Origin: a virus
Lineage: Duplodnaviria > Heunggongvirae > Uroviricota > Caudoviricetes
Length of the DNA: 64,000 nucleotides
IMG/VR virus record: IMGVR_UViG_3300032304_001269
Coordinates: 10,067-74,066 of that record
Strand: one strand, 5' to 3'
Every line of letters begins with the position of its first letter. The stretch's first letter is position 1. This document shows, piece by piece, positions 38,057 through 38,128 of this stretch. A program made the translations under genes and the position numbers. The notes under the pieces were generated by a model. That model searched no databases and was not told the DNA's origin. It worked only from the letters and a program-made list of their open reading frames with translations.

Positions 38057-38128
38057 ATGTGGACTACACCAGCAGCGACTGATCTAAGATACGGGTTCGA
38101 AATTTCAATGTACATTGCTAATCGTTAA
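38057..38128 (+). CDS. pqqA: PqqA-like peptide (23 aa)
   Basis: [23 protein letters not shown] compared with Klebsiella PqqA [23 protein letters not shown]: W2, P5, DLR, G13 and the E-x3-Y pair (E15/Y19) are conserved. AAAGGAG RBS upstream; terminator downstream. Confidence 0.5.
   Translation: [23 protein letters not shown]

Follow-up and report, generated by a model that had tools for sequence, protein, structure and literature searches.

Pyrroloquinoline quinone (PQQ) is derived from PqqA, a ribosomally made peptide. A glutamate and a tyrosine of PqqA are joined through their side chains and cut out, which yields the cofactor, and one PqqA is consumed per PQQ molecule. In 2020, Coutinho et al. 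described a PqqA from the Lake Baikal viral population VP_266. The predicted hosts of VP_266 are Methylophilaceae, and its contig encodes a viral methanol dehydrogenase as well as PqqA (PMC7678222). Also, pqqA is among the viral genes listed in a 2026 reservoir study (PMC13188868).

Here, we describe a pqqA gene in a window of 64,000 nucleotides (the whole stretch of DNA that was analysed) from a large phage of freshwater type. A sequence-only reading of the window had suggested that a phage-borne pqqA would be a new kind of auxiliary gene. The two reports above contradict this, and we find that phage pqqA is widespread. As far as we found, three things had not been described before: the breadth of phage pqqA, the systematic gap in its annotation, and the possible descent of the phage gene from an orphan paralogue under separate regulation, with the operator retained. 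(In the open-access full texts that we searched, papers on the cultured methylophages did not mention pqqA.)

An orphan pqqA in a phage genome

The gene at 38057-38128 encodes a 23-residue peptide that resembles bacterial PqqA (such as that of Klebsiella) in its length, its W-x-x-P leader, and its Glu-x3-Tyr core. Unlike the bacterial genes, it is carried by a phage, and pqqBCDE does not follow it. The sequence-only reading had called it a PqqA-like gene and had proposed that it be scored with the two curated models, and its peptide passes the cut-offs of both. Pfam's PF08042 (PqqA) gives 28.2 bits (gathering cut-off 21.1; E = 1.8e-6) and covers 19/19 model positions, and NCBIfam's TIGR02107, which is an equivalog model, gives 29.6 bits (cut-off 20; E = 4.5e-7) and covers 21/21 positions. 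These matches are beyond chance even when corrected for the roughly one to two thousand ORFs of at least 20 amino acids in 64 kb. The peptide contains Glu15 and Tyr19, with three residues between them, which are the residues from which PQQ forms; this pair had been pointed out from the sequence as well. We also compared a PqqA HMM to all stop-to-stop frames of the window. The only match was 38057-38128 (the next best had E = 1.1). This HMM was built with the window's peptide included, so only the lack of further matches is informative. The window's pqqA is real and conserved (see below), and it is very probably functional.

That the window lacks pqqBCDE had been noted from its ORFs, and our searches agree. 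Using tblastn with queries from Acinetobacter (E < 1e-3), we found no PqqB, PqqC, PqqD, or PqqE in the window, nor did tblastn find any in the 10 kb past its right end (in a contig from ENA). Similarly, tblastn (E < 1e-3) found none of them around pqqA in 120 contigs from IMG/VR (up to ~15 kb each), and scanning IMG/VR with a profile of PqqC gave no matches. A radical-SAM gene in the window (6380-7426) was considered as a possible pqqE, but its best match is to the N-terminal twitch-domain family NF033640 and it does not match PqqE. As for a full pqqABCDE pathway in the phage, there was no homolog of PqqC or PqqE in the ~74 kb inspected (the genome is at least 113 kb). Linkage to pqqB, pqqC, pqqD, or pqqE is typical of pqqA but is not obligatory: 32 of the 120 listed pqqA loci from Burkholderiales (described below) have no pqqBCDE within 8 kb, so the missing linkage does not exclude the window's gene from the PqqA family. 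Enzymes that use PQQ were sought too. There was no methanol dehydrogenase among the larger ORFs of the window (by Pfam and PHROGs), and no unscanned ORF was long enough to encode one; nor was there an ORF of ~600 amino acids with PQQ-propeller domains among the large ORFs scanned.

The gene lies in a bona fide phage genome with phage genes on both flanks, as had been supposed. The window's matches to PHROGs and Pfam include tail proteins, a DNA polymerase, both subunits of ribonucleotide reductase (RNR), and virion proteins, and the window is co-linear with many viral contigs from IMG/VR, up to 355 kb. Megablast of the window's 33-45 kb region against GenBank phages gave no match. A metagenome scaffold of 66,296 bp from ENA (KRAE22-1_SAMEA4981856_METAG-scaffold_145) is 99.9% identical to positions 53553-64000 and runs on past the end of the window, which implies that the phage genome is at least ~113 kb. 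The G+C content of the window is ~42%. The window also encodes unusually many host-like proteins: 5-aminolevulinate synthase, a fatty-acid desaturase, AhpC, AhpD, an SDR sugar epimerase, DnaK, heme oxygenase with a ferredoxin-dependent bilin reductase, and an autotransporter-domain protein. (The 5-aminolevulinate synthase is an alphaproteobacterial-looking trait and dissents from the host assignment given below.)

Anatomy of the cassette

The sequence-only reading had given pqqA its own expression signals, and we found promoter-like, ribosome-binding, and hairpin elements around the ORF. These features, along with three nearby genes that lie outside the cassette, are (all on the + strand):

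35714..36024, +, permuted two-piece tmRNA of the betaproteobacterial type (Rfam RF01850 beta_tmRNA, RF04321, and ARAGORN); context
36904-37443, +, ahpC-like peroxiredoxin gene (AhpC-TSA, E = 8e-21); context
37443-37949, +, ahpD-like gene (TIGR00777 ahpD, E = 1.7e-35); context, with ahpCD directly upstream of the cassette
37966..37980, +, palindrome-like operator TAATGATTTTAACTA, which matches 10/12 positions of TAATGA-N3-TCATTA
37980-37985, +, ATGAGA, the paired -35 candidate (promoter scan; weak)
38004..38009, +, TATAAT, the -10 hexamer of a sigma-70-type promoter (promoter scan, 10/12 matches)
38017..38033, +, 5'-UTR hairpin CATACT-tgcat-AGTATG, near the predicted 5' end of the transcript and conserved in the window's clade
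38043..38049, +, Shine-Dalgarno sequence AAAGGAG, 7 nt before the ATG (read from the sequence)
38057..38128, +, pqqA, ATG to TAA, encoding the 23-residue PQQ precursor peptide (PF08042 and TIGR02107, above curated cut-offs)
38141..38168, +, terminator-like hairpin AGAAAGCCCAC-tta-GTGGGCTTTCT (38141-38165, by folding) with a short interrupted T-tract

Apart from the context genes, these elements make up a self-contained "moron"-type cassette of ~280 nt that sits between unrelated genes of a large phage. In syntenic relatives, the ~110 nt upstream of the ORF are as well conserved as the ORF itself. The cassette behaves as a discrete insertion that varies among relatives. In two of them (L307 and L309), ahpD is followed directly by a GDSL gene and the segment corresponding to 37950-38226 is absent. 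Conversely, in two other relatives (L250 and L253, 84-87% identical DNA), the cassette is kept and ahpC and ahpD are missing. Among close relatives, the presence of ahpC and ahpD is independent of pqqA.

At the upstream end of the cassette, the center of the palindrome is ~43 nt 5' of the predicted transcription start, and the palindrome overlaps the position of the weak -35. In syntenic relatives, this site is a conserved block, TTTTAATGATTTT. More broadly, 45 of 142 dereplicated upstream regions of viral pqqA contain the palindrome with at least 10/12 matches, as compared to 2.3% of control windows. The viral palindromes concentrate 80-120 nt 5' of the ATG (in the window, the palindrome is at -91), and the spacing between the palindrome and the -10 element has a peak at 23 nt, which is also the spacing in the window. 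Beside such a poor -35, the window's palindrome looks like a candidate activator site, to which a regulator would bind. The TATAAT is kept in relatives (L124, L112, L251, L250, L253, and L270).

Folds of single sequences show the 5'-UTR hairpin in no cassettes but those of the window's clade. Between sub-clades, both arms of the stem have changed: to AAGTAC/GTACTT in L249, to CATACAT/ATGTATG in L291, and to GTTAGAA/TTCTAAC in L263. Across all of the viral cassettes, structure in the 5'-UTR is barely above background (p = 0.04), and RNAalifold reported no structure for the 5'-UTR, because differences in loop length broke the alignment. The Shine-Dalgarno sequence, which had been described as a consensus site and which we place at 38043-38049, is more general: 138 of 143 dereplicated viral cassettes have a similar motif.

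Downstream of pqqA, the hairpin begins 12 nt past the stop codon. It has 11 base pairs and a centroid energy of -17 kcal/mol (z = -2.9), and 0/200 shuffled sequences folded as well. The sequence-only reading had described a strong terminator after the stop codon. The hairpin is there, but "strong" is slightly generous for the window's copy: its U-tract is interrupted (GGGCUUUCUCUU), which is why a consensus terminator scanner made no call at this hairpin. The hairpin is shared by the relatives, where compensatory changes have altered its stem (for example, to GCCCAC/GTGGGC, TCCCGC/GCGGGA, GCTCAC/GTGAGC, or ACCCGC/GCGGGT) and where it is followed by clean T-runs. Overall, 83 of 143 viral cassettes have a terminator-like hairpin within 80 nt downstream, as compared to 3.2% of control windows. 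The TTGACC of the next promoter begins at 38167, and TTGAC is often found at this place in the relatives.

Recurrence in phages and a bacterial orphan paralogue

To see how widespread phage pqqA is, we compared the window's peptide to GenBank phages with tblastn, and we found pqqA-like ORFs in 10 true phage records. Nine of these are from phages that were isolated on Methylophilales (P19250A, MEP301, Venkman, MEP401, MEP402, and four records for Melnitz), and the tenth is MW202481, a podovirus from a spring metagenome. The Methylophilales phages with pqqA include sipho-, podo-, and myoviruses, or at least three unrelated morphotypes. (Two other matches, both to "Acinetobacter phage MD-2021a", were rejected because they are bacterial chromosome that carries pqqABCDE.) In all seven of the records that we inspected (one Melnitz, P19250A, MW202481, MEP301, Venkman, MEP402, and one of the MD-2021a contigs), pqqA was not annotated, and in one Melnitz isolate and in MW202481, a "hypothetical protein" was annotated on the opposite strand over the pqqA site. 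pqqA is too short for standard gene callers, which explains why it is un-annotated in the cultured methylophages that we inspected. Given this gap, viral pqqA must be strongly under-counted.

In IMG/VR, a scan with a degenerate DNA pattern identified at least 120 contigs with pqqA. Every listed match was a clean ORF of 23-25 amino acids with a methionine just before the tryptophan; the exact sequence of the window's pqqA was not found. Because the pattern forces several of the residues, we also gathered relatives without reference to pqqA: we used the neighboring GDSL-like gene as the probe to select 80 loci from IMG/VR, and we searched all of their frames with the HMM. pqqA was found in 30 of the 80 loci, always on the same strand, and was absent within 6 kb on either side in the other 50. 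The sequence-only reading had left it to a comparison with related phages whether the ORF, and especially its Glu/Tyr pair, is conserved; where the gene is present, both residues are invariant (31/31 copies, which are the 30 relatives and the window). Three IMG/VR contigs (L253, L280, and L270) encode the identical core peptide, and the peptide from the 355-kb contig (L287) is one residue off. Of the 22 codons, 9, 7, and 20 vary at the first, second, and third position, respectively, and pN/pS is 0.22 (at pS = 0.62). The excess of variation at third positions and the low pN/pS show that the pqqA frame is translated and under purifying selection.

We then asked where this subtype of the peptide is found in bacteria. 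A scan of one genome per species returned at least 120 loci, and almost all of the matches listed were from Burkholderiales, including Burkholderia, Paraburkholderia, Polaromonas, Limnobacter, Comamonas, Hydrogenophaga, Oxalobacteraceae, and others. Among the matches listed, the closest peptides are identical to the window's at 20/22 positions, and nearly all of these are orphan copies of pqqA. In 59 of the 120 listed Burkholderiales loci, pqqA is adjacent to pqqBCDE; these are the loci with the AYT, AFT, or SFT variants of the peptide.

The orphan copies are also distinguished by their surroundings. Among the matches listed, the palindrome T[AC]ATGA-N3-TCAT[TG]A is upstream of 16/27 orphan copies but just 1/82 of the pqqB-linked copies from Burkholderiales. 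In these orphan loci, the palindrome is about 125-146 nt before the ATG. Furthermore, the bacterial orphan pqqA is divergently adjacent to genes for a HAMP/HisKA_3 kinase and a NarL/LuxR-type response regulator, and the regulator is 88-96% identical across genomes whose G+C content ranges from 41% to 68%. At one bacterial orphan locus, pqqA is followed by a gene for a PqqU-like TonB receptor, with a score of 507 bits that is below the family cut-off of 1200.

The orphan paralogue of Burkholderiales (L133, L134, L147, L223, and others) thus resembles the phage gene in 20/22 residues of the peptide, in its lack of linkage to pqqB, and in its upstream palindrome. There are also differences. The kinase and the regulator adjoin the Burkholderiales orphan copies, whereas the phage has neither; the palindrome is closer to the ATG in the phage (-91 instead of about -125 to -146); and two residues of the phage peptide, Tyr12 and Ser17, are Phe and Thr in the Burkholderiales orphan peptides. 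The window's palindrome also resembles the middle 15 nt of the Fur consensus. We downgraded the interpretation as a Fur box on three grounds: many copies have the form TCATGA...TCATGA, the site has an activator-like position by a weak -35, and the bacterial copies always adjoin the highly conserved NarL/LuxR regulator.

These similarities suggest that the phage pqqA cassettes may descend from the Burkholderiales orphan paralogue and not from an operon-linked pqqA. A more specific scenario is that this paralogue belongs to a regulon for PQQ homeostasis, which may consist of the divergent HAMP/HisKA_3 kinase, the NarL/LuxR-type regulator, and sometimes a PqqU-like importer, and that the phages kept the operator, which would place the cassette under the control of the host's two-component system. 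We consider this scenario to be possible, but we would not bet on it. If it is true, then phage pqqA would be switched on only when the host signals a demand for PQQ. It would be a host-regulated auxiliary metabolic gene (AMG) that many phages of methylotrophs and of other betaproteobacteria, unrelated to one another, have in common.

The host of the window's phage is most likely a PQQ-producing betaproteobacterium, to judge by the tmRNA and by the relationship of the peptide. The tmRNA scores 144 bits against RF01850 (beta_tmRNA; gathering score 84) and 130 bits against RF04321, and ARAGORN agrees. Clade-specific tmRNA models are considered usable for subtyping (PMC11915505). The host had earlier been described as alphaproteobacterial or methylotroph-like. 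These results do not support Alphaproteobacteria; they point to Betaproteobacteria/Burkholderiales, including the methylotrophic Methylophilaceae, on account of the 144-bit match to beta_tmRNA and the 20/22 identity of the peptide. A related concern was whether the host group makes PQQ, and the 59 listed Burkholderiales loci with adjacent pqqBCDE indicate that it does; we presume from its group that the actual host has pqqBCDE.

Proposed role and comparison with known systems

We propose that phage pqqA supplies a stoichiometrically consumed precursor to the host's PqqBCDE and thereby sustains PQQ-dependent energy metabolism during infection; on balance, we think that this is probably the case. 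Because the gene has its own promoter, operator-like site, 5' hairpin, ribosome-binding site, and terminator, we infer that the host's RNA polymerase would transcribe it, from the host-type sigma-70 promoter, as a short monocistronic mRNA. Since there is no pqqBCDE in the phage sequence that we examined, the peptide would have to go to the host's PqqD/PqqE/PqqB/PqqC machinery. Because PqqA is used 1:1, its supply depends on continuous transcription and translation, and the phage's copy would keep up or raise the flow of precursor as host gene expression declines. This flow would sustain the periplasmic PQQ-dependent dehydrogenases (for methanol, alcohol, or glucose) and so provide energy for phage production. 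In OM43, the most highly transcribed gene is xoxF, which encodes a PQQ-dependent methanol dehydrogenase (PMC5120137). The dominance of XoxF in OM43 and the presence of pqqA in phages of exactly these hosts favor the supply of precursor. Purifying selection on pqqA also indirectly favors its expression in infected cells and a benefit to the phage.

Some observations count against precursor supply. pqqA is missing from 50 of the 80 relatives, so it is dispensable, and in the window's copy the -35 is weak and the U-tract is interrupted. Also, conservation of the glutamate and the tyrosine is expected of a tight-binding decoy as well. Such a decoy would bind PqqD/PqqE as a poor or excess substrate, titrate maturation, and stop the synthesis of PQQ, and the strong translation signals of an orphan gene and the conserved leader-like W-T-x-P at the N terminus are consistent with that. 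However, a decoy would be free to lose the residues that are consumed, and instead purifying selection acts on the Glu, the Tyr, and the entire C-terminal half. The core is identical to that of bona fide host copies (20/22 in Burkholderiales) and is near-identical across the phages of Methylophilaceae. Blocking the main energy-yielding enzyme of a methylotrophic host would hurt the yield of phage, and the co-occurrence of PqqA with a viral methanol dehydrogenase in the published viral case points to the boosting of PQQ. Based on the sequence evidence, we favor precursor supply over the titration of PqqD/PqqE, which seems quite unlikely.

Alternatively, the extra PQQ might have a benefit that is unrelated to energy: secreted PQQ could block PqqU-type TonB receptors against competing phages, or PQQ could act as an antioxidant or a metal chelator. 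PQQ does block infection by a PqqU-dependent coliphage (PMC12124388), the PqqU-like receptor (507 bits) follows a bacterial orphan pqqA of the same subtype, and the window's cassette adjoins the peroxide-defense genes ahpC and ahpD. But the linkage to ahpCD is not conserved, the score of the receptor falls short of 1200, phages of these hosts are not known to use PqqU, and the strongest association of phage pqqA is with hosts whose dominant enzyme requires PQQ. A non-energy benefit is therefore unlikely. It is very unlikely that pqqA is a neutral passenger, or recently captured host DNA with no role in the phage. Its patchy presence among close relatives and its host-like promoter and operator signals would fit with that, but it recurs in unrelated lineages of phages (over 150 contigs), the pN/pS of 0.22 is not near 1, the Glu and Tyr are invariant, the ribosome-binding site and the terminator are maintained via compensatory changes, and the relatives have no appreciable frameshifted or start-less copies. 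Finally, we can virtually dismiss the idea that the site does not encode PqqA at all and is a chance ORF, a small RNA, or the place of an opposite-strand ORF (37978-38115, minus strand, 45 amino acids), even though opposite-strand "hypothetical proteins" are annotated at the homologous place in Melnitz and MW202481. The peptide passes two curated HMM thresholds, the variation is mostly at third positions of the pqqA frame, the start, stop, and ribosome-binding site of that frame are kept across more than 150 copies, and Rfam has no match at the pqqA site.

If phages do supply PqqA to their hosts, the consequences could be ecological. For their energy, abundant aquatic methylotrophs (OM43, LD28, and their relatives) rely mainly on PQQ-dependent methanol and alcohol dehydrogenases, so phages that top up PqqA would directly affect the turnover of C1 compounds in lakes and coastal seas. 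The shared operator also hints that the host may control a phage metabolic gene, which could be tested; cultured phage-host pairs for this exist, such as Melnitz or Venkman with OM43 H5P1 and P19250A with IMCC19250.

Among known systems, VP_266 is similar to the window in that its pqqA was proposed to be an auxiliary metabolic gene of a phage with methylotrophic Betaproteobacteria as hosts (PMC7678222). It differs in having a methanol dehydrogenase, which was absent from the larger ORFs of the window; the comparison to VP_266 is by its description (PMC7678222).

The cultured Methylophilales phages (P19250A, MEP301, Venkman, MEP401/402, and Melnitz) also have an orphan pqqA, encoding 23-24 amino acids, with its own ribosome-binding site, and in several of them the motif TTAATGATT is found upstream of pqqA, as in the window. 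Their peptides are of the EMRFGFEVTMYVMNK type and are identical to the window's at 13-14 of 22 positions. Most of these phages are small sipho- or podoviruses and are unrelated to the window's phage.

As a functional analogy, phage pqqA can be compared to psbA of cyanophages. With its copy of psbA, a cyanophage sustains the energy metabolism of the host while infecting it. In both cases, the phage carries a copy of a host component that is rapidly consumed, and energy metabolism would be maintained. The difference is that psbA encodes a complete working protein, while PqqA serves just as a substrate, which four or five host enzymes must convert before it is of use.

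Genomic context and annotation of pqqA

Immediately 5' of the phage pqqA is an ahpC/ahpD peroxide-reductase pair (window 36904-37949, + strand). Two relatives of the phage from IMG/VR (L250 and L253) keep pqqA and lack ahpC/ahpD, while two others (L307 and L309) keep ahpC/ahpD and lack pqqA. These are separate cassettes, independent of each other, that share one variable region.

The window also encodes a radical-SAM protein (6380-7426, + strand), which we ruled out as PqqE: its best match is NF033640, an N-terminal twitch-domain family, with 135.6 bits (under the cut-off of 170).

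In Burkholderiales, we found a conserved orphan-pqqA locus, in which pqqA, with a palindrome, points away from the genes for a HAMP/HisKA_3 kinase and a NarL/LuxR response regulator, the latter very highly conserved. Examples are:

L134 1438-5255, with a cytochrome P450 gene downstream
L223 427-5161, with a PqqU-like TonB receptor (507 bits) downstream
L128, L133, L173, L175, L184, L205, L224 and L241

This looks like a PQQ-related regulon that has not been described so far. Loci of this Burkholderiales type in L133, L175, L182 and L205 (48-59% G+C) come from metagenome-assembled genomes titled "uncultured Bifidobacterium sp."; mislabelling or contamination of these bins is probable.

The GenBank phage records that we examined (one Melnitz isolate, P19250A, MEP301, Venkman, MEP402, and the spring podovirus MW202481) carry no annotation of pqqA. 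According to the hit table, the ORF is present in MEP401 and three more Melnitz isolates as well. In the Melnitz isolate and MW202481, a "hypothetical protein" is annotated on the opposite strand over pqqA; this is spurious. Among the GenBank accessions of these phages are MW452941, MT375522, and OP830906/7; in three others, the ORF has these coordinates:

MZ577095 (L001 4001-4069)
KX815270 (L002 3001-3072)
MW202481 (L003 2119-2190)

We rejected as phages L004 (CAKLQF020000010.1) and other entries of the phage collection named "Acinetobacter phage MD-2021a", which contain pqqABCDE, fur, ppk, dnaK, and hscA and are bacterial chromosome contigs.

Haem and bilin genes, and the host

Three genes of the phage belong to haem or bilin metabolism:

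999-2210, - strand, 5-aminolevulinate (ALA) synthase (TIGR01821, 568 bits)
48283-48828, + strand, haem oxygenase
48818-49501, + strand, ferredoxin-dependent bilin reductase

Together they would form a route from ALA/haem synthesis to bilin, and all three are on a single non-cyanobacterial phage. The host signals of this phage are betaproteobacterial, and ALA synthase, typically a trait of Alphaproteobacteria, is at odds with them. The phage also encodes a permuted (two-piece) tmRNA (35714-36024, + strand; Rfam beta_tmRNA, 144 bits, and tmRNA_permuted, 130 bits), whose tag peptide, as predicted by ARAGORN, is unusually long and ends in ALAA.

Other genes, within and beyond the window

A 99.9%-identical metagenome contig, L328 (ENA KRAE22-1_SAMEA4981856_METAG-scaffold_145), adds 10 kb to the window (L328 10449-20405). 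This extension encodes a ClpP-like protease, a PDDEXK nuclease, an Asp/Arg hydroxylase, and a fatty-acid desaturase. The protease and the desaturase are second copies of their kinds in this phage; the first copies, and two other host-like genes, are in the window:

78-665, first ClpP
16641-17342, first desaturase
45468-47432, + strand, full-length DnaK/Hsp70 (65-71% identity to proteobacterial DnaK)
51307-53412, + strand, 701-amino-acid protein with an autotransporter beta-domain

DnaK/Hsp70 proteins of this kind are known from megaphages too.
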